DNA of 64,000 nucleotides from Candidatus Microgenomates bacterium (GTDB lineage: Bacteria > Patescibacteriota > Microgenomatia > Daviesbacterales > UBA10151). A program made the translations under genes and the position numbers. Numbering within the stretch: position 1 is the first letter of the stretch; the number at the start of each line of letters is the position of its first letter. Positions 42,358 through 55,972 of this stretch are shown here, one piece after another. The notes under the pieces are model-generated. The model had not been told where the DNA came from, did no database searches, and saw only the letters and a program-made list of their open reading frames with translations. Location of the stretch: positions 34,121-98,120 of the forward strand of contig JACOYE010000007.1 in NCBI GenBank assembly GCA_016182045.1, read 5' to 3'.

Positions 42358-43422
42358 TCAATCCATAAAATAATCCAACTTCATAGCCTTTTTAACTTCT
42401 TCTAATGTTTTTTGGGCTTCTGATCGGGCTTTTTCAGTACCTTCTTTGAGGATCCGTTCGACAAGCTCAGGATCTCGCTCGAATCGAGCTCGACTTTTTC
42501 TTATTGGATCCAGGAAATTATTTAAAACTTTAACCAGAAACTTTTTTACCTCAATATCCCCCACCTGGCCTTTTGTATAGCGAGATTTGAGATTTGAGAT
42601 TTGAGATTTGAGATTTTCAGGACCAAAGGCATCTAAATAGATAAAAACGGGGTTGCCTTCAACTCTACCTGGATCAGTAGCATGTATTCTTTTAGGATCT
42701 GTATACATATTCATCACCTTTTTCTCCACTTCTCCAGCAGTATCTGAAAGATTAATCACATTCCCAGCAGACTTACTCATTTTGGCTTTGCCATCTGTTC
42801 CAGGTAAAATGCCTAAATCTTCTGGTACCAAAGCTTCCGGTACTGGAAAAACCTGACCAGACACCTCCGAGGTGGGCTTTGACTCCTCGGAGGTGGATTG
42901 AGAAGATTTACCATAAACTCTATTAAATTCCCTGGCAATTTCTCTGGTAATCTCGATATGCGAAACTTGATCCTTACCCACCGGTACTAAGTGGCTTCTC
43001 ACCATTAAAATATCTGCTGCCTGAAGCACCGGGTAACCTAAAAGCCCATAGGAGGGAATGGTGATATGTGCATCTCTCATCACATCTTTTAAGGTGGGCA
43101 TCCGTTCAAGTCTGGGGACGGTGGTTAAATTGCCAAAAATGATGGCCAGTTCTGCCACTTCAGCTATTTGAGATTGAACATAAATGGTGGCTTTCTCAGG
43201 ATCAATTCCGACGGAAAGATAATCCAATACCATCTGGTAAATATTTTCCTTAAGCTCTTGGGTATCTTTAAGCTCAGGTTTAGTAGTTAAGGTATGCAAA
43301 TCCGCAACAATAAAAAAGCACTCATATTCATCTTGCAACCTGACCCTATTTTTCAAAGACCCCACATAATGGCCTAAATGTAATTTTCCAGTTGGTCTGT
43401 CCCCTGTTAATATTCTTTTCAT
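42358..43422 (-). CDS. trpS: tryptophan--tRNA ligase with in-frame heptamer-repeat insertion
   Basis: GDRPTGKLHLGHYVG and KMSKS motifs; NLKSQISNLKSQISNLKS repeat. Confidence 0.9.
   Translation of the reverse strand: MKRILTGDRPTGKLHLGHYVGSLKNRVRLQDEYECFFIVADLHTLTTKPELKDTQELKENIYQMVLDYLSVGIDPEKATIYVQSQIAEVAELAIIFGNLTTVPRLERMPTLKDVMRDAHITIPSYGLLGYPVLQAADILMVRSHLVPVGKDQVSHIEITREIAREFNRVYGKSSQSTSEESKPTSEVSGQVFPVPEALVPEDLGILPGTDGKAKMSKSAGNVINLSDTAGEVEKKVMNMYTDPKRIHATDPGRVEGNPVFIYLDAFGPENLKSQISNLKSRYTKGQVGDIEVKKFLVKVLNNFLDPIRKSRARFERDPELVERILKEGTEKARSEAQKTLEEVKKAMKLDYFMD
42583..42617. repeat. tandem heptanucleotide repeat (GATTTGA)n inside trpS
   Basis: gatttgagatttgagatttgagatttga... Confidence 0.8.
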
Positions 43423-43676
43423 AAGTTTTTACTTTTATCAGTATCCTTTTTTAATTTCTCAATAATCCACATCCTTGCTAAAGTGGTGGGACCAATACCC
43501 AGATGATCTGCTTTCTGCCGCAGCTTTTGAATATCGTCAGATTCAAACCTAATGGTTAATGTATCAGTTTTATTTGCACGGTGTAAACCAACTTTTATAT
43601 CCTTACCGAAAACATCTATGGCATCATGTTTATCCCAAAAATCAGCCTCCTCTTCTAAGGTTTTAAACGGCTTCAT
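43419..43676 (-). CDS. brnA: BrnA-like antitoxin (second copy)
   Basis: LEEEADFWDKHD...IGPTTLARMWIIEKL, paralogous to 41715..42077. Confidence 0.6.
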   Translation of the reverse strand: MKPFKTLEEEADFWDKHDAIDVFGKDIKVGLHRANKTDTLTIRFESDDIQKLRQKADHLGIGPTTLARMWIIEKLKKDTDKSKNL

Positions 43677-43705
43677 TGGTTTGATAGATCCCTTTTTAAC
43701 AAATC

Positions 43706-44002
43706 TTATCTTAATTTTTCGCCTCCCTTAAAATTTTCCATATATAATAATTGTTCTTTTTTCTTGGTGTACCTTGCAGTCACAAGTCCGTATCTATTTT
43801 TCCCACTTCTTGGTCCAACTACCACAGTAATTAACCTGCCTTTATTCGTTTTTCCCACTAACAAACTTTTATCAGATCTCCCCTTTAAAATTAAATAATC
43901 CCCAGCTATAACCTCAAAAACTTCATCTATTGTTATGCTGTGCCTAGCTATATGCTCTGGTCTATCTTCCTCAATAATCAGCTCATCAACAGTAACATCC
44001 AT
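43706..44002 (-). CDS. brnT: BrnT-like (DUF497) toxin (second copy)
   Basis: EEDRPEHIARHSITIDEVFEV...RLITVV pattern. Confidence 0.55.
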   Translation of the reverse strand: MDVTVDELIIEEDRPEHIARHSITIDEVFEVIAGDYLILKGRSDKSLLVGKTNKGRLITVVVGPRSGKNRYGLVTARYTKKKEQLLYMENFKGGEKLR

Positions 44003-45105: not shown

Positions 45106-45742
45106 TACGTATACTATTATACTAGTATGCTAGTAATTTGTCAAGTGTCGAATTTACCATTAAAAAATCCGCTTTCGCGGATCATGTCGCGGATCATGTC
45201 GTTGACCTCCTCCCCAGTTCCAACCATCTGGATCAAAGGATTTTCTCTACTCTAGGACTTGTCAACCTTACCTTTCTTCTCTACTTTTCCGAAGATTATC
45301 AAAAAAATTCCAAAAGCCATTATAATCAGTAATCCCGTCATCAAACCGATAAAGCGGTCATTAAAATCAATCATTTCTCCCCCTTATTTTGAAGTATAGC
45401 ACCAATCACCAGGATGATCAATCCGCTCAGTAACAAAGGAATATAACGTGTTAGTAGAATAGGTTCTCGAAGCTGAAATGTTTCAGGTAAGAAGAACGCT
45501 CCAGATGATCCTAAAATTACCCCCCTCAGCTATTGTTTTGAAAGCAGATGCGAAAAATAACCATTGACCTTTAGATAATTTTAGACTAGCTATCATATAC
45601 CGGCCTCTCCTCTCCTGCAACTTCCTTTCACTACTTCTAGTCTAACACAAATTCTTTCTCCCCAAAGAGGCTCACAACCATCAAAAAAGCCCCTGCTTAA
45701 ATAAGGGCTTAAGTCCCCCCAACCATACCAGGTCAAAGCTTT

Positions 45743-47113
45743 TTAATTAATATAATTATCAGAAAACCATCGCAATGCAGCTTGGAGGTTTTTCGTTTCT
45801 TTCGTGCCTAATCTCAAGGCATATTGAAAAGATGCCTCTCTTTTAGCCTCAGCAAGATCTATATCATAAATTTCAACAGGCCATAAGTACTCTGCTATAT
45901 TACCCACCACTTTTAGCTTATAAAGATCATAAGCAGGACCATTATGTATTCCTGACTCTGGATCAAATTCCCCCACTTCATACTGGGAAGCTATGTAATC
46001 CTCAAGTGCGAATATCATTACTTCTAAAGGACTCTCTAACCCTTCTACAGAGATTAATCTTCTTCTAAATTGCACTCTATCTGATCTGCCATGACTGGTC
46101 TTAACAGAATCTTTTTTCTTAATTTCACCATTACCAGTAAATTCACTAAATAAATTTTCCACTTCTTGGGTAACTTTATCTCGTAGTGGGCGTCCTCCCT
46201 CCATAATCACTAGTCTAAAGCCAACATGATCTTCAACATGATGTAGGGTTTCTATAACACCACCATTAGTTTCAGAGCCATTAAGTCCGGCTCCATTGGC
46301 CAACCAAGATCTCTCCTTTGCCTTAATAACTGCTGATGGAAGATCCTTTTCTCTTGGATCATACAATACTAGTACATCCCCTCCCTGTTCATCCTTAAGT
46401 CCTAATTTTCTAACAGGAAAATCTAAGGACTTCACCCATAAATCATCTCTAAATTTCGGATCAGGATACTTAGAACTTAATCCAACTAATCTGTTCGTAC
46501 CTGGTTCATGATATGAGAAAGTATGATATTTTTTGGGATCTCCACTTTTACCTGTAAATAACCGTCTCTCTAAAAAAGTATTAATTCCTGCTAGAACTTC
46601 TCTGGCCTGACCATTTTCATCTCTAGACATCAATTCAGCACAAAGCAAAGCTAAACCTAATTGACTACCTTGCTCATACCTATACTGCTGACCTATTAGT
46701 CCTGAAGGCATAGTCAGTACTCTCAAGGCATCTGAAGGTTTTCCCCGGGCCCATGCAATATTATTTGTTAAGGTTGCTTGTCTTTCTTGATCAGCAAAGA
46801 GTATGCCATGGGCGTAATTCACCGTATCGGTTGCTCGTCTCACTGCTGTTTTCCAAAATCTCTCTCTTTCATCCTGATTATCTTTGATGCCGAACATAGC
46901 TCCAACTTTATCGTATTGTGCCCTATCTACTCCTAAACAGAGTTCTTCAGAAATATCCTCGCCCCTTTTCCATGCCTGTCTAAATTTATCATAAGTTTCC
47001 TCACCAAAAAAGCTTTTTACTTCCCTCACCATTAACTTTCCACCCCTAATACCTTGTTTAAACATATCAAACACTAATCCTGGTCTTCCTTCAGCTAATT
47101 CTGTAATTGCCAT
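45743..47113 (-). CDS. hypothetical protein, 456 aa, unknown function, preceded by attenuator leader
   Basis: AAGGAGA RBS 8 nt upstream of ATG; no recognisable domain. Confidence 0.55.
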   Translation of the reverse strand: MAITELAEGRPGLVFDMFKQGIRGGKLMVREVKSFFGEETYDKFRQAWKRGEDISEELCLGVDRAQYDKVGAMFGIKDNQDERERFWKTAVRRATDTVNYAHGILFADQERQATLTNNIAWARGKPSDALRVLTMPSGLIGQQYRYEQGSQLGLALLCAELMSRDENGQAREVLAGINTFLERRLFTGKSGDPKKYHTFSYHEPGTNRLVGLSSKYPDPKFRDDLWVKSLDFPVRKLGLKDEQGGDVLVLYDPREKDLPSAVIKAKERSWLANGAGLNGSETNGGVIETLHHVEDHVGFRLVIMEGGRPLRDKVTQEVENLFSEFTGNGEIKKKDSVKTSHGRSDRVQFRRRLISVEGLESPLEVMIFALEDYIASQYEVGEFDPESGIHNGPAYDLYKLKVVGNIAEYLWPVEIYDIDLAEAKREASFQYALRLGTKETKNLQAALRWFSDNYIN

Positions 47114-47133
47114 AATTTTCTCCTTTCTAAACT

Positions 47134-47300
47134 AAAAACCGCTCCTTTTTTTGGGAGCGGTTCATTTAGGTTTTTATTCCCCTTTATTTGGGAATTACCC
47201 TTAGAACCGCTGCCCTGTAATAAGGGAGCGTTTCATAAAATTAAACATTCTGACCATATACATAATTTTCATATTCATAAATTTTCTAAAAAAGAAAAGA
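47134..47300 (-). promoter_or_regulatory. putative ribosome-mediated transcription attenuator (leader ORF + alternative hairpins + terminator)
   Basis: segments AACGCTCCC / GGGCAGCGGTT / AACCGCTCCC / GGAGCGGTTTTT allow 1:2 + 3:4(terminator) or 2:3 pairing. Confidence 0.55.
47201..47278 (-). CDS. leader peptide MNMKIMYMVRMFNFMKRSLITGQRF (6 in-frame AUG codons)
   Basis: all six ATG in one frame; stop codon lies inside hairpin segment 2. Confidence 0.4.
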   Translation of the reverse strand: MNMKIMYMVRMFNFMKRSLITGQRF

Positions 47301-47325
47301 ATCCTTCTGACAGGATTCTGCTCTT
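47296..47325 (-). terminator. Rho-independent terminator after citryl-CoA lyase-like gene
   Basis: AGAATCCT-tctgac-AGGATTCT stem followed on minus strand by TTTCTTTTTT. Confidence 0.55.
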
Positions 47326-47419
47326 ATTTTTAGAATAAACACAAATGAGCATTTTGTCAAGATCTATTTTACTATAAGTTAAGCAAAAAGTCAACCACAA
47401 TCAGTTTACATGATTGTGG

Positions 47420-48211
47420 TCAAGTTTTCTTAAGAGATCTTGGAGGAGCACCATCATATTCAATCTCCTCATCAGCAATTCTTCTGAATGGCTTTTCTCT
47501 GACCCATTCCTCAAAAATATGGGCCACCAGCCCTACCACCCTGCCTATTATGAAAAATCCTTTACCTAACCTATAATCAAAACCCATATCAGAAATAACC
47601 GCTGCTATTGCCCCATCCACATTAATGGGGATCTTTTTACCCTTTTTCTCCTGTAGCACACCCTCTACATTTTGAGCCAGTTCACAATGTTCCCCATAAA
47701 AACCTAACTTTTTGGCTTTTTCAAAAATCTGGGTAGCTCTGGGATCTTCATCTTTATAGACTTTATGCCCGAAACCAGGGATTCTATCACCTGAACCCAA
47801 AACTTTTTCCACCAGCTTTTCTGCAGTTAATCCCATCTGAAGTAACCTGGCACACTCTTCAATTGCTCCTCCATGGGCATCCCCTATTCCCAAAACTCCG
47901 GCAGCCACTGCTGCTTGCATGGGATTACCAGCTGAGGCTGAATTCCTGGCATTAGTCACAGATGGTGGACCTAAACCATTATCTATTGTGGAAATAAGGA
48001 TAGCATCCAGCATAGCTCTTTCTTTATCAGAGGGAAGTTCACTTTTTAATTCCAGCCAGATAGCATCTGTAAAATTAACTTTATCTATCAATTCTGTGAC
48101 TTTATAACCATGAATATGAGCCTCCCCATCAATTATCCCTGAAATAGCTGTTTTCCACTTTTTATCCATATTTGAATAAGTTCTCCAAGTTACAAGATAC
48201 AAGTTTTCCAA
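47420..48211 (-). CDS. citryl-CoA lyase-like protein (citrate-synthase-fold, ACL C-terminal domain homolog)
   Basis: citrate synthase signature GFGHKVYK.EDPR. Confidence 0.7.
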   Translation of the reverse strand: MENLYLVTWRTYSNMDKKWKTAISGIIDGEAHIHGYKVTELIDKVNFTDAIWLELKSELPSDKERAMLDAILISTIDNGLGPPSVTNARNSASAGNPMQAAVAAGVLGIGDAHGGAIEECARLLQMGLTAEKLVEKVLGSGDRIPGFGHKVYKDEDPRATQIFEKAKKLGFYGEHCELAQNVEGVLQEKKGKKIPINVDGAIAAVISDMGFDYRLGKGFFIIGRVVGLVAHIFEEWVREKPFRRIADEEIEYDGAPPRSLKKT

Positions 48212-48275
48212 AAAATAATCAAATTCAAAAGTTTAAATTCTAAAATTTGGGTTTTTGAATTTGTTTGTAACTTGT

Positions 48276-49172
48276 TTACTTGGACACTTGATTGTTTAAT
48301 AAACCAGGTATTTCATCTGGAGTTTTGGCTATTTTGACACCGGCTTCCTCAAACGCCTTAATTTTTGATTTATAACTGCCTTTCTCTCCATAAATTATTG
48401 CTCCTGCATGGCCTAATTTTGTACCCTGAGGTAAAGTTTCTGCAAATAAACCAGATATAAAGGCAACTACTGGTTTTGTGAAACCACCAGATTTGATCAG
48501 TTCTGCAGCTTCTTCCTCATATGTTCCACCTATTTCCCCAAATAACACCACAGCCTCAGTTTGAGGGTCTTTTTCAAATTCTTCCATCAAATCTGCAAAA
48601 GTTGAGCCCACCAATATATCTCCACCAATACCCACCACAGTTGATTGCCCAATTCCATTTTTGGTAAGAATCCATGAAACTTCCGAGGCCATTCCTCCTG
48701 ATTTTGAGATTACACCTACTGATCCTTTGGAAAAAACTCCTCTGGGATCATCTCCTCCAATTGAACCAACCTTTCCTATTCCTGGTGAGATTATCCCAAT
48801 TGATGAAGGACCGACAATTCTGACAGTCTGTTTGGCTAAAGCTATTGCCTTGGCAGTATCTTGGATGGGAATATGTTCTGTTAAAACATTTATAAGAGGA
48901 ATTTTGGCCTTAATTGCTTCCTCTATTGCCCCAAATGCAGCAAAGTTAGGCACAGCGACAAATGAAGTATTTATCCCTGGATGATTCTCTAAAGCCTCAG
49001 CTATTGTATTATAAACCGGCACTCCATGAACTTCCTGACCGCCTTTACCAGGAGTTACTCCAGCCAAAACGCGAGTGCCATAATTTTTCATCTGCAAGGC
49101 CACTTTGGACCCTTCTTTACCGGTGATACCTTGAACTAAAACTTTGGTTTGTTGGGTTATTAGAATAGCCAT
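48276..49172 (-). CDS. succinyl-CoA synthetase alpha-like subunit (CcsB/AclA N-domain-like)
   Basis: CoA-binding VLVQGITGKEG; phosphohistidine loop GHAGAII. Confidence 0.85.
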   Translation of the reverse strand: MAILITQQTKVLVQGITGKEGSKVALQMKNYGTRVLAGVTPGKGGQEVHGVPVYNTIAEALENHPGINTSFVAVPNFAAFGAIEEAIKAKIPLINVLTEHIPIQDTAKAIALAKQTVRIVGPSSIGIISPGIGKVGSIGGDDPRGVFSKGSVGVISKSGGMASEVSWILTKNGIGQSTVVGIGGDILVGSTFADLMEEFEKDPQTEAVVLFGEIGGTYEEEAAELIKSGGFTKPVVAFISGLFAETLPQGTKLGHAGAIIYGEKGSYKSKIKAFEEAGVKIAKTPDEIPGLLNNQVSK

Positions 49173-49334
49173 TAAATTTCTCCTTTAAAAGCAGCGCAGT
49201 CATGAGCATAAAAGCAATTAGAAAGTTTTGTGTGTAGATACCCGTCACAAAACTTTCCCATAGCGAGACTAGAGATATATCTCAATGTTTCAGTATCCAC
49301 TAGTCGAGCGGTGCTTTTTGCCATGACAAGCTGA

Positions 49335-50549
49335 TTATTTTCCATAAGCCAGATCTACCATAATCTTTGCTGTACTTGTCATCGGTGTCTCCCTCCCATA
49401 TATATGAAAATCAAAACCCTCTTTCTTACCCACTTCTTTTAACATCTCAAAAGCTTCTTTATCCCTTGGTCCACCACGCCGGATCACAATTGGGTATATA
49501 GGCTTAGGCTTGATCTCTCGCAACCCTTCCACAAAGCCCATTAAAGTTTCATAAATATCAGTAAAATTGGCTGTTCCGCCCACAAACCAACAGCCTTTTA
49601 ACCCAGGTTTTGATAAAACTATCTTGGTTAGTTTTTTTAATTTCTCACGCGGAGGATTACCTGAGTGCTCAGTATAATTGGCAGGTCTTCCACCATATGC
49701 CAAAAGCGCATCCATATTGACAATAGACCCTCCACCTCCGGCTGCAATAACTGCAATATCTCCATCTAAATCCCAATAAACAGAACCTGCTGTACCTCTG
49801 TGATCCCCTTCATCAATTTTGCGGGCCTCAATTTCAGCCTCAGTTGGAGGCCTGCCAAAAAGATTTCTTTCCGGGAATTTTACCTCACGTCTAAAATCAG
49901 CATCATCATCCAAAATCACTTTGGCATCTAAGGCATATACTTTTGCATCACTTCGACTCGAAGACTCGCTCAGTGAATATTGGCTGAGCGAAGTCGAAGC
50001 CTTACCTATAACTAATGGATTTATTTCCGCTAACTCACAATCATATTTAGTAAATACTTGCCATAATTTATTAGCCACATCCACTAGCTCTTTTGGAAAA
50101 TCCTGTGGAGTTTCAAATCCTTTTAAAATATCAACAGGATAACTTTGTGCCCTCTTTTCCTCTACCCCAGTTCCTCCCTCCCCAAAAGTCATGATGGGGC
50201 CACGGGTTGAAGTATCATAGGAAAATGATAAATAATACTCTTTTTCATATTCCACTATCTCCTCTACCAAAACCTTTTCCACCTTTTCCCCATTAATCGT
50301 TTTTCCAAATAATTCTTTTAGGCTGGTGCTTACTGCCTGTTGACTGTCCACTTTTATGATTCCACCAGATTGCGCTCTTTTGCCAGATAAAGTTTGTGCT
50401 TTTAAAACCACCCCATCTGTCATTCTGACCCTGAGCGCAGTCGAAGGGGAAGAATCTAATTCCTCATGAGCTGTGATAAACTGTGACTCTGGCACATTTA
50501 TCCCACAATTTTTAAAAAGAATTTTGCCTTCAAATTCATAAAGAAGCAT
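49335..50549 (-). CDS. succinyl-CoA synthetase beta-like ATP-grasp subunit (CcsA/AclB-like) with two in-frame hairpin-element insertions
   Basis: ATP-grasp N-domain; low-complexity inserts SLSQYSLSESSSRSDAKV and SSPSTALRVRMTDG. Confidence 0.8.
   Translation of the reverse strand: MLLYEFEGKILFKNCGINVPESQFITAHEELDSSPSTALRVRMTDGVVLKAQTLSGKRAQSGGIIKVDSQQAVSTSLKELFGKTINGEKVEKVLVEEIVEYEKEYYLSFSYDTSTRGPIMTFGEGGTGVEEKRAQSYPVDILKGFETPQDFPKELVDVANKLWQVFTKYDCELAEINPLVIGKASTSLSQYSLSESSSRSDAKVYALDAKVILDDDADFRREVKFPERNLFGRPPTEAEIEARKIDEGDHRGTAGSVYWDLDGDIAVIAAGGGGSIVNMDALLAYGGRPANYTEHSGNPPREKLKKLTKIVLSKPGLKGCWFVGGTANFTDIYETLMGFVEGLREIKPKPIYPIVIRRGGPRDKEAFEMLKEVGKKEGFDFHIYGRETPMTSTAKIMVDLAYGK
49949..50001. 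repeat. hairpin element (CTGAGCGAAGTCGAAG family) inside SCS-beta-like gene
   Basis: cacttcgactcgaagactcgctcag...ctgagcgaagtcgaag inverted arms. Confidence 0.7.
50419..50456. repeat. hairpin element (GTCATTCTGACCCTGAGCGCAGTCGAAGG) inside SCS-beta-like gene
   Basis: shares CCTGAGCG(A/C)AGTCGAAGG core with 51417 copy. Confidence 0.7.
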
Positions 50550-51964: not shown

Positions 51965-52037
51965 GTACCAGGGGTGGGGATCGAACCCACAACCGCCACG
52001 TTATGAATGTGGTGCTCCGCCATTGAGCTACCCTGGC
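51965..52037 (-). tRNA. tRNA with CAT anticodon (elongator Met or lysidine-type Ile)
   Basis: cloverleaf readable: acceptor GCCAGGG, D arm GCTC/GAGC, anticodon loop TTCATAA, T arm GTGGG-TTCGATC-CCCAC. Confidence 0.75.
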
Positions 52038-53760: not shown

Positions 53761-53832
53761 CGCGGGGAAGTGTAACGGCTGCACACAAGGCTCATAATCT
53801 TGAGGCAGTGGGTTCGACTCCCGCCCCCGCAA
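53761..53832 (+). tRNA. initiator-type tRNA-Met (CAT)
   Basis: 5' CGCGGGG and 3' CCCCCGCAA acceptor identical to E. coli tRNA-fMet (C1xA72 mismatch), anticodon loop CTCATAA. Confidence 0.8.
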
Positions 53833-55899: not shown

Positions 55900-55972
55900 T
55901 GGGCGGACCAGGACTTGAACCTGGAACCAATTCTGTATAAGAGAACCGCTCTACCAATTGAGCTATCCGCCC
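55900..55972 (-). tRNA. tRNA-Ile with TAT (UAU) anticodon
   Basis: acceptor GGGCGGA/TCCGCCC, D arm GCTC-AATTGGTA-GAGC, anticodon loop CTTATAC, T arm CCAGG-TTCAAGT-CCTGG. Confidence 0.65.

Follow-up and report, generated by a model that had tools for sequence, protein, structure and literature searches.

A putative, highly divergent RelA/SpoT-like synthetase behind a leader-peptide attenuator in a Microgenomates bacterium

Regulation in bacteria of the candidate phyla radiation (CPR, or Patescibacteria) is largely unknown, and one locus of Candidatus Microgenomates bacterium raises a double question: what does its transcription attenuator control, and which signal does it read? The locus lies in a stretch of 64,000 nt (hereafter the window; assembly GCA_016182045.1, contig JACOYE010000007.1, positions 34,121 to 98,120), in which a first-pass annotation had described a 456-amino-acid (aa) protein of unknown function under a Met-codon attenuator and proposed for it an undescribed role in methionine acquisition, salvage or stress. 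We find that the attenuator upstream of this gene, here called gene X, is real, and that its product, from its predicted fold and active-site motifs, is most likely a very divergent relative of the ppGpp-type RelA/SpoT homologue (RSH) synthetases. The composite picture, a starvation-inducible RSH-like pyrophosphokinase whose synthesis would be gated by ribosome stalling on a leader peptide in a CPR bacterium, is one that we hold at even odds.

The gene and its own signals are the following:
45743..47113, minus strand: gene X (HYT18_00895), encoding a 456-aa protein of pI 5.9
47120..47126, minus strand: Shine-Dalgarno (SD) sequence AAAGGAG of gene X
45687..45710, minus strand: terminator 3' of gene X, from the terminator scan

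The open reading frame (ORF; 456 codons plus stop) was confirmed as first annotated, with its strand now supplied, and so was the good ribosome-binding site (AAAGGAG at 47126..47120, spaced 6 nt from the ATG at 47113). HYT18_00895, a hypothetical protein deposited for a Candidatus Microgenomates bacterium, has the identical sequence. Relatives were found in metagenomes, some of them from groundwater (46 further 90%-identity clusters, full length, 40-58% identity), and a profile search of 1.84 billion representatives returned 261 clusters (50%) at E<=1e-3, with 57 at E<=1e-30. Gene X is therefore real and a member of a small family. Among the GTDB species representatives, the sole relative was found in a Candidatus Daviesbacteria metagenome-assembled genome, whose leader is identical to that of metagenome locus L014. 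Two alignments were used, A1 for the close family and A2 for 56 distant members (~20-25% identity); a further profile word-search aimed at distant members gave matches nearly all from the close family. One distant member of 604 aa sits in a housekeeping context, among genes for AspRS, GluRS, RecJ and a CCA enzyme.

The AlphaFold2 model of X, computed from a 47-sequence alignment, was confident (pLDDT 86.6, pTM 0.86) and has two domains:
46550..47113, minus strand: N-terminal all-helical domain, residues 1-188 (AlphaFold2 model; no convincing structural relative)
45794..46546, minus strand: C-terminal alpha/beta domain, residues ~190-440, predicted to have an RSH-synthetase-like fold of the Pol-beta nucleotidyltransferase superfamily

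FaRel2 came top of the Foldseek ranking (probability 0.99, E 0.094), followed by RelSeq, T. thermophilus Rel and SaSAS, and the predicted structure shows the SYNTH-domain fold of RSH synthetases. The long-RSH layout, with an N-terminal HD (pseudo)hydrolase and C-terminal TGS/ACT domains, was tested and not found in X. A degenerate HD hydrolase was also tested for the N-terminal domain and rejected; as modelled, this helical domain is new.

RSH synthetases are marked by the motifs RxKxxxSxxxK, DxxGxR, ExQxRT and GxAAHxxYK. The motifs of X match them in order, spacing and secondary-structure setting:
46322..46354, minus strand: R254-E-K256-DLP-S260-AVI-K264, reading RxKxxxSxxxK (K256 and K264 invariant in the 56 distant members)
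46214..46231, minus strand: D295-HV-G298-F-R300, reading DxxGxR (D295 invariant)
46022..46024, minus strand: E364 on strand PLEVMIF, nearly invariant, counterpart of the catalytic Glu in EIQIRT
45917..45940, minus strand: G392-P-A-Y-D-L-Y-K399, family consensus GxAHxLYK, resembling the RSH C-terminal motif GxAAHxxYK

Across the distant members, R235, K256, K264, D295 and G381 are invariant, and R351, E364 (55/56 members) and G392 nearly so. In the model, the RxKxxxSxxxK motif falls at a strand-to-helix junction (the end of strand 246-255, then helix 258-275), and strands 297-303 and 363-369 hold D295 and E364. X lacks the classical GS...DxD triad by which the nucleotidyl-transferring members of the fold are known, and the conserved residues, read on the model, single out the RSH branch of the Pol-beta fold. 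That X would be another Pol-beta-fold nucleotidyltransferase (an adenylyl or uridylyl transferase, or a CD-NTase-like or MenT-like enzyme) and not a pyrophosphokinase is improbable.

Given the RSH fold and this pattern of active-site residues, X most likely binds ATP-Mg via R254/K256/S260/K264 and D295/E364. It would then transfer the beta-gamma pyrophosphate of ATP to a 3'-OH acceptor, most probably a purine nucleotide; in that case X would be an alarmone synthetase of the (p)ppGpp or (p)ppApp type. These steps are not equally secure: judged from the model, X probably performs RSH-type chemistry, and a (p)ppGpp/(p)ppApp-type product is plausible, if somewhat short of an even bet. The acceptor is uncertain because the Tyr that stacks on guanine in the RSH G-loop is missing.

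Several results weigh against placing X among the RSH enzymes. Neither X as a single sequence nor the A1 and A2 family profiles had any match in Pfam, NCBIfam, PADLOC or PDB sequences, and RSH membership lacks sequence-profile significance by every method. Even at E<=10, none of the 56 distant members matched Pfam RelA_SpoT (PF04607), no Pfam family of any kind recurred among them, and the PDB profile searches with the X family retrieved no RSH. When the X family was aligned by hhalign with the RelQ family (PF04607), a single local alignment resulted, which pairs the RxKxxxSxxxK motif with GRVKPVASILEK and brings the Asp into the expected register, but it is weak (P 0.017, probability 2.6%). 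The RelQ/SAS1 reference set consisted of verified PF04607 proteins, and the B. subtilis YjbM sequence was a 100% match to a database entry. The Foldseek E-values were likewise all >0.09, none <1e-3. At the active site, the G and R of DxxGxR do not extend beyond the close family, the Q, R and T of EIQIRT are not conserved, and the RSH G-loop GYxSxH is replaced by G342-(R/Q)343-S344 followed by F349-x-R351; no conserved Tyr or His occurs in this G-loop-equivalent region of the family, a correspondence that follows motif order alone and not a structural alignment. The initial impression that X has no identifiable motif thus stands for the profile libraries and falls for the fold and the active site. 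Because X fails on both profile and G-loop membership, we class its family as divergent and RSH-like, not as a member of PF04607.

The altered G-loop and EIQIRT motif could also mean that X has no catalytic activity and that this RSH-like pseudo-enzyme regulates by binding nucleotides. We consider this very unlikely, as the Mg- and phosphate-binding residues K256, K264, D295 and E364 are invariant at ~20% identity, the usual picture where an active site has been maintained. Compared with the small alarmone synthetases (RelQ/SAS1, RelP/SAS2, SaSAS; PF04607), to which it has no detectable sequence-profile similarity, X adds the 188-residue helical domain and extra beta-strands (194-238, bearing the invariant S200, H202, N207, K228 and R235), lacks the G-loop Tyr and is controlled by a leader-peptide attenuator.

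This leader was read on the minus strand from 47423 down to the ATG of gene X and contains an upstream ORF (uORF) among the following elements:
47391..47423, minus strand: terminator of the upstream citrate-synthase-like gene, from the terminator scan
47332..47360, minus strand: dedicated promoter TTGACA-17-TATTCT
47288..47319, minus strand: 5'-terminal hairpin AGAATCCT-gtcag-AAGGATTCT followed by a U run; every orthologous locus conserves it, uORF-less ones included
47201..47278, minus strand: uORF of 25 codons, without SD, encoding the leader peptide MNMKIMYMVRMFNFMKRSLITGQRF
47224..47230, minus strand: segment 1, CGCTCCC, in uORF codons 17-19
47204..47215, minus strand: segment 2, GGGCAGCGGTTC, partner of segment 1 or of segment 3 (antiterminator)
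47176..47196, minus strand: middle hairpin AATTCCC-aaataaa-GGGGAAT inside the antiterminator, conserved with compensatory changes
47136..47163, minus strand: attenuator terminator (segments 3:4), GAACCGCTCC-CAAAAAAA-GGAGCGGTTT plus U tract, directly before the SD of gene X

In the window, X is a separate transcription unit because the first of these terminators ends the upstream gene. The attenuator leader is present as first described, with its uORF and an intrinsic terminator right before the SD. Known cis-regulatory RNAs (T-box, SAM, ppGpp and PRPP riboswitches, Rfam leaders) were considered as its identity and rejected, as none reached its gathering threshold: in an Rfam scan of the window, only tRNAs scored above threshold, and the best match in the leader was Phe_leader, at 22.3 bits against a gathering score of 55.

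Nine leaders were compared (window, L001, L012, L014/L020, L016, L019, L024, L025 and L026). All nine share the TTGACA -35 element, the 5' hairpin, an AUG ~10 nt past the U run and a frame open through segments 1 and 2. The uORFs have 21-33 codons and overlap segment 1; across the nine loci their frame holds 0 stops and the two remaining frames hold 12 and 13, and the product of the shuffle probabilities is 2e-6, an optimistic figure since the sequences are related. All nine can also form P1 (1:2; -8 to -13 kcal/mol), the antiterminator (2:3; -16 to -32 kcal/mol), in which segment 2 pairs at length with segment 3 around the middle hairpin, and the terminator (3:4; -10 to -16.5 kcal/mol). RNAalifold chooses the antiterminator, with compensatory U-A / U-G / C-G exchanges and covariation in the 2:3 stem. 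The motif formed by segments 2, 3 and 4 has a single copy in each locus and a single one in the whole 64-kb window, and every copy precedes X. Computation thus gives a promoter, a uORF, alternative hairpins and a terminator ahead of a protein with an RSH-like fold and invariant catalytic residues.

With the uORF untranslated, or translated to its stop, 1:2 and 3:4 would form and transcription would end at 47136. A ribosome that stalls when codons 15-17, or thereabouts, occupy its A site would mask segment 1, so that the 2:3 antiterminator would form and X would be made; read-through should therefore depend on a ribosome held at a sentinel codon. In a ribosome-masking simulation of the window leader, the terminator was lost only with the A site at codons 15-17 (M15, K16, R17).

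Other observations speak against such a ribosome-dependent switch. The uORF AUG is preceded by no SD in any of the nine loci, only by A/U-rich sequence. In equilibrium simulations, three leaders never lose the terminator and four favour the antiterminator even without a ribosome, and go on doing so until the ribosome reaches segment 2; since the result is ambiguous in these seven other leaders, a kinetic, co-transcriptional model is needed. Finally, the leader stands before the orthologue in eight other loci, but ~8 orthologous loci have no uORF. In six of these (L003, L005, L007, L011, L017 and L023), the upstream region is only ~70 nt long and holds a promoter-like sequence, a hairpin and a U run.

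Some leaders differ in ways of their own. In L009/L021 (~100 nt upstream of X), only the 3' arm of the terminator (GGAGCGGTTTTTTT) comes directly after promoter and 5' hairpin, a natural leader deletion variant without uORF and without terminator 5' arm; constitutive expression of X is therefore predicted in that lineage. In L019 (1745-1805), the called start of the homologue P0012 is probably 20 codons too early: its extension MYIPTKPPHKVGAAFLVRRK is the translated attenuator terminator, and the protein truly starts at the Met of MLAITERPELTF. The terminator-like 5' hairpin with its U run begins ~6 nt past the predicted transcription start of X, and in uORF-less loci it lies directly 5' of the SD. 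This hairpin may stabilise the 5' end, serve the SD-less uORF as an S1/initiation platform, or act as an early attenuator.

The leader peptides bear on what the attenuator reads:
uORF peptide, window: MNMKIMYMVRMFNFMKRSLITGQRF
uORF peptide, L016 (closest; protein 58% identical): MKPTCCLVRKMFWYQTSLISGSGSGGDGPNKRE
uORF peptide, L024: MINFAKFIIWQKRSIHHGSGSGE
uORF peptide, L026: MTFFKHIVIWQRRLFTKGSGSST
uORF peptide, L025: MKNISFHQIWKNRYTPPGSSGFSRDSQ
uORF peptide, L012: MNKFNLFNFWKRYALFIGGSGSVGLSPDKVQD
uORF peptide, L019: MKLFKNNSWKKVLLRSRSGFLGYKPK
uORF peptide, L001: MKTTQYNLLLKLHSFTEEWFE
uORF peptide, L014/L020: MKSLFVSKLIICYRPLMWGSGGGGDNPGQRE

That X is an enzyme of methionine acquisition, salvage or Met stress under a Met-tRNA-sensing attenuator can draw on two features of the window uORF, its five internal Met codons among 25 (P = 1.4e-4 against composition-preserving shuffles) and the place of M15 at the structure-switching position. 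The Met-richness is, however, confined to the window genome among the nine leaders. Where the window has Met15, six of eight relatives have a single Trp codon 2-4 codons ahead of segment 1, which is the position where a stalled ribosome would cover segment 1 and leave segment 2 free; at this control position, L001 has four Leu codons and L014 nothing obvious, and other relatives have no uORF. The extra in-frame AUGs could moreover be alternative starts for the SD-less uORF. X has no fold or profile similarity to MetK, MetY or MtnK, the comparison that had been proposed to check the idea, and no Met genes occur in the conserved neighbourhood. Since the sentinel codon varies between relatives, a Met-specific function of X is disfavoured, and we find the methionine proposal very improbable; of the Met-codon attenuator, the attenuator and the Met enrichment in the window hold, and conservation of the Met codons does not. 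With Met here and a single Trp in most relatives, the signal would be slow decoding or shortage of aminoacyl-tRNA in general.

The 'GSGS' tail of the uORFs is segment 2 (GGGAGCGGTTCT) translated and therefore reflects RNA constraint. In the window (47201..47215, minus strand), segment 2 has a 1-nt insertion (GGGCAGCGG) relative to L016 204-245 (GGGAGCGG), which shifts the frame into an early TAA; the RNA pairing is kept and the peptide tail is lost, with an in-frame remnant of the ancestral tail, PNKGE before the stop, where L016 has PNKRE before the stop.

The gene neighbourhood was informative for two further readings of X. Upstream in the window lie split ATP-citrate-lyase-like genes and an NTP-transferase gene, and downstream a Trp_repressor-family gene (E 2.5e-20), a BrnT/CopG pair and TrpRS. 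All longer loci keep the order X, then TrpR-like gene and/or toxin-antitoxin (TA) modules or a racemase, then TrpRS, tRNA_bind and FtsH, with ATP-citrate-lyase-like or NTP-transferase genes upstream of X. In L024 and L026, X adjoins trpS with no terminator between.

FaRel2 and CapRel are pyrophosphokinases of the tRNA CCA end and belong to the toxic small alarmone synthetases, or toxSAS (PMC7229694, PMC11559606). A Trp theme (Trp sentinel codon, TrpR-like gene, TrpRS) would suit an X that is likewise a tRNA-directed pyrophosphokinase acting on the 3'-CCA, like FaRel2, PhRel2 and CapRel. Such an X would be a housekeeping regulator on the chromosome, linked to tRNA-Trp and TrpRS, and a Trp-codon attenuator would control it together with trpS. 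In the window, however, a terminator of its own (45710..45687) follows X, trpS lies 2.3 kb off behind other promoters and a TA pair, the X promoter has no TrpR-type operator and the leader no Trp codon; X is also acidic (pI 5.9), unusual for a tRNA binder, and the synteny may be mere inherited gene order. We therefore hold this reading to be unlikely.

We also weighed X as a toxin or an effector of defence, be it a toxSAS or, in the manner of CapRel, a toxin fused to its antitoxin, restrained by the N-terminal domain or by a small neighbour, as the fold family includes toxSAS, small genes often lie 3' of X and TA modules are nearby. The downstream neighbour varies, however (TrpR-like, 99 aa, 144 aa, PhdYeFM, or TrpRS directly), PADLOC gave no match, and none of the phage and plasmid collections searched held a relative. 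X also keeps a single syntenic position across proteins that are 40-58% identical. Unlike the toxSAS FaRel2 and CapRel, X is thus PADLOC-negative, without a conserved antitoxin partner, off mobile elements and in a syntenic housekeeping position. Conserved synteny and the absence of phage or plasmid relatives argue that X is a vertically inherited core gene and not a toxin or defence gene, an alternative that we judge highly unlikely.

Some features of the surrounding genes stand on their own. At 47420..50549 (minus strand), this CPR genome has genes with ATP-grasp_2 plus Citrate_bind, CoA_binding plus Ligase_CoA, and citrate synthase C-terminal domains; such split ATP-citrate-lyase / citryl-CoA-like genes occur in most orthologous loci, not in L001 and L020. 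The 84-aa Trp_repressor-family gene (PF01371; 44851..45144, minus strand) has a perfect TTGACA-17-TATAAT promoter holding tandem TACTAG-NN-TACTAG-TATAATAGTA repeats, similar to the CTAG-core TrpR operator and conserved in L012 4300-4376, L017 2402-2486 and L005 2680-2756; this sequence suggests that the trpR-like gene may be autoregulated. Control of X by such an operator was rejected for the window, where the trpR-like promoter is the one place in 64 kb with a TACTAG-NN-TACTAG repeat. The idea that TrpR-like gene and uORF leader are mutually exclusive regulators was rejected too, as L012 has both.

Type II TA pairs (BrnT/CopG, PhdYeFM/ParE, PemK) lie at varying places between X and trpS/tRNA_bind (window 43419..44002, minus strand; L020 5688-6224; L023 3272-3808 and 4801-5350; L025 4865-5224; L026 3408-4016), and this stretch looks like a TA insertion hotspot. 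Between the X terminator and the trpR-like promoter (45190..45690, minus strand) are two or three very short hydrophobic ORFs, for instance the 40-aa MIDFNDRFIGLMTGLLIIMAFGIFLIIFGKVEKKGKVDKS, with a further terminator nearby at 45183..45166; they may encode small membrane peptides or together be a frameshifted gene. The tRNA genes found by the Rfam scan lie at 51966..52037 (minus), 53761..53832 (plus) and 55900..55972 (minus).

As a regulatory device, the X leader resembles trpL, pheL, pheM-pheST and hisL of E. coli: a short ORF overlaps segment 1, the 1:2, 2:3 and 3:4 hairpins are alternatives, with an intrinsic terminator as the last of them just before the regulated gene, and the control codon lies ~1-4 codons upstream of segment 1. 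It differs from them in that its uORF has no SD and in most relatives a single control codon, whose identity varies with lineage (Trp, Met, Leu), and in that X is not an amino-acid biosynthetic gene and by its fold not an enzyme of the Met or Trp pathway. In the literature we found nothing on RSH enzymes in Microgenomates, nor on small alarmone synthetase genes under leader-peptide attenuation.

RSH surveys rely on profile hidden Markov models (PMC7229694), and such censuses would therefore miss the X family. As the family keeps fold and catalytic residues yet escapes Pfam and NCBIfam, alarmone signalling may be under-counted in CPR/Patescibacteria, and the altered acceptor site of X could mean a new nucleotide product. 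If the proposed function is true, the X leader would be a new link of tRNA charging to alarmone production, in which synthesis of the enzyme is controlled and not its activity. It would also join the few ribosome-mediated attenuators that have been described in bacteria other than Proteobacteria, Firmicutes and Actinobacteria. More speculatively, and as a scenario that we can only put forward tentatively, Daviesbacteria-like Microgenomates may have rewired the stringent response: in place of a ribosome-activated RelA-type enzyme, they would use a profile-invisible RSH-like synthetase switched on by leader-peptide stalling, with a sentinel codon that has drifted between single-codon amino acids, Trp in most lineages and Met here.

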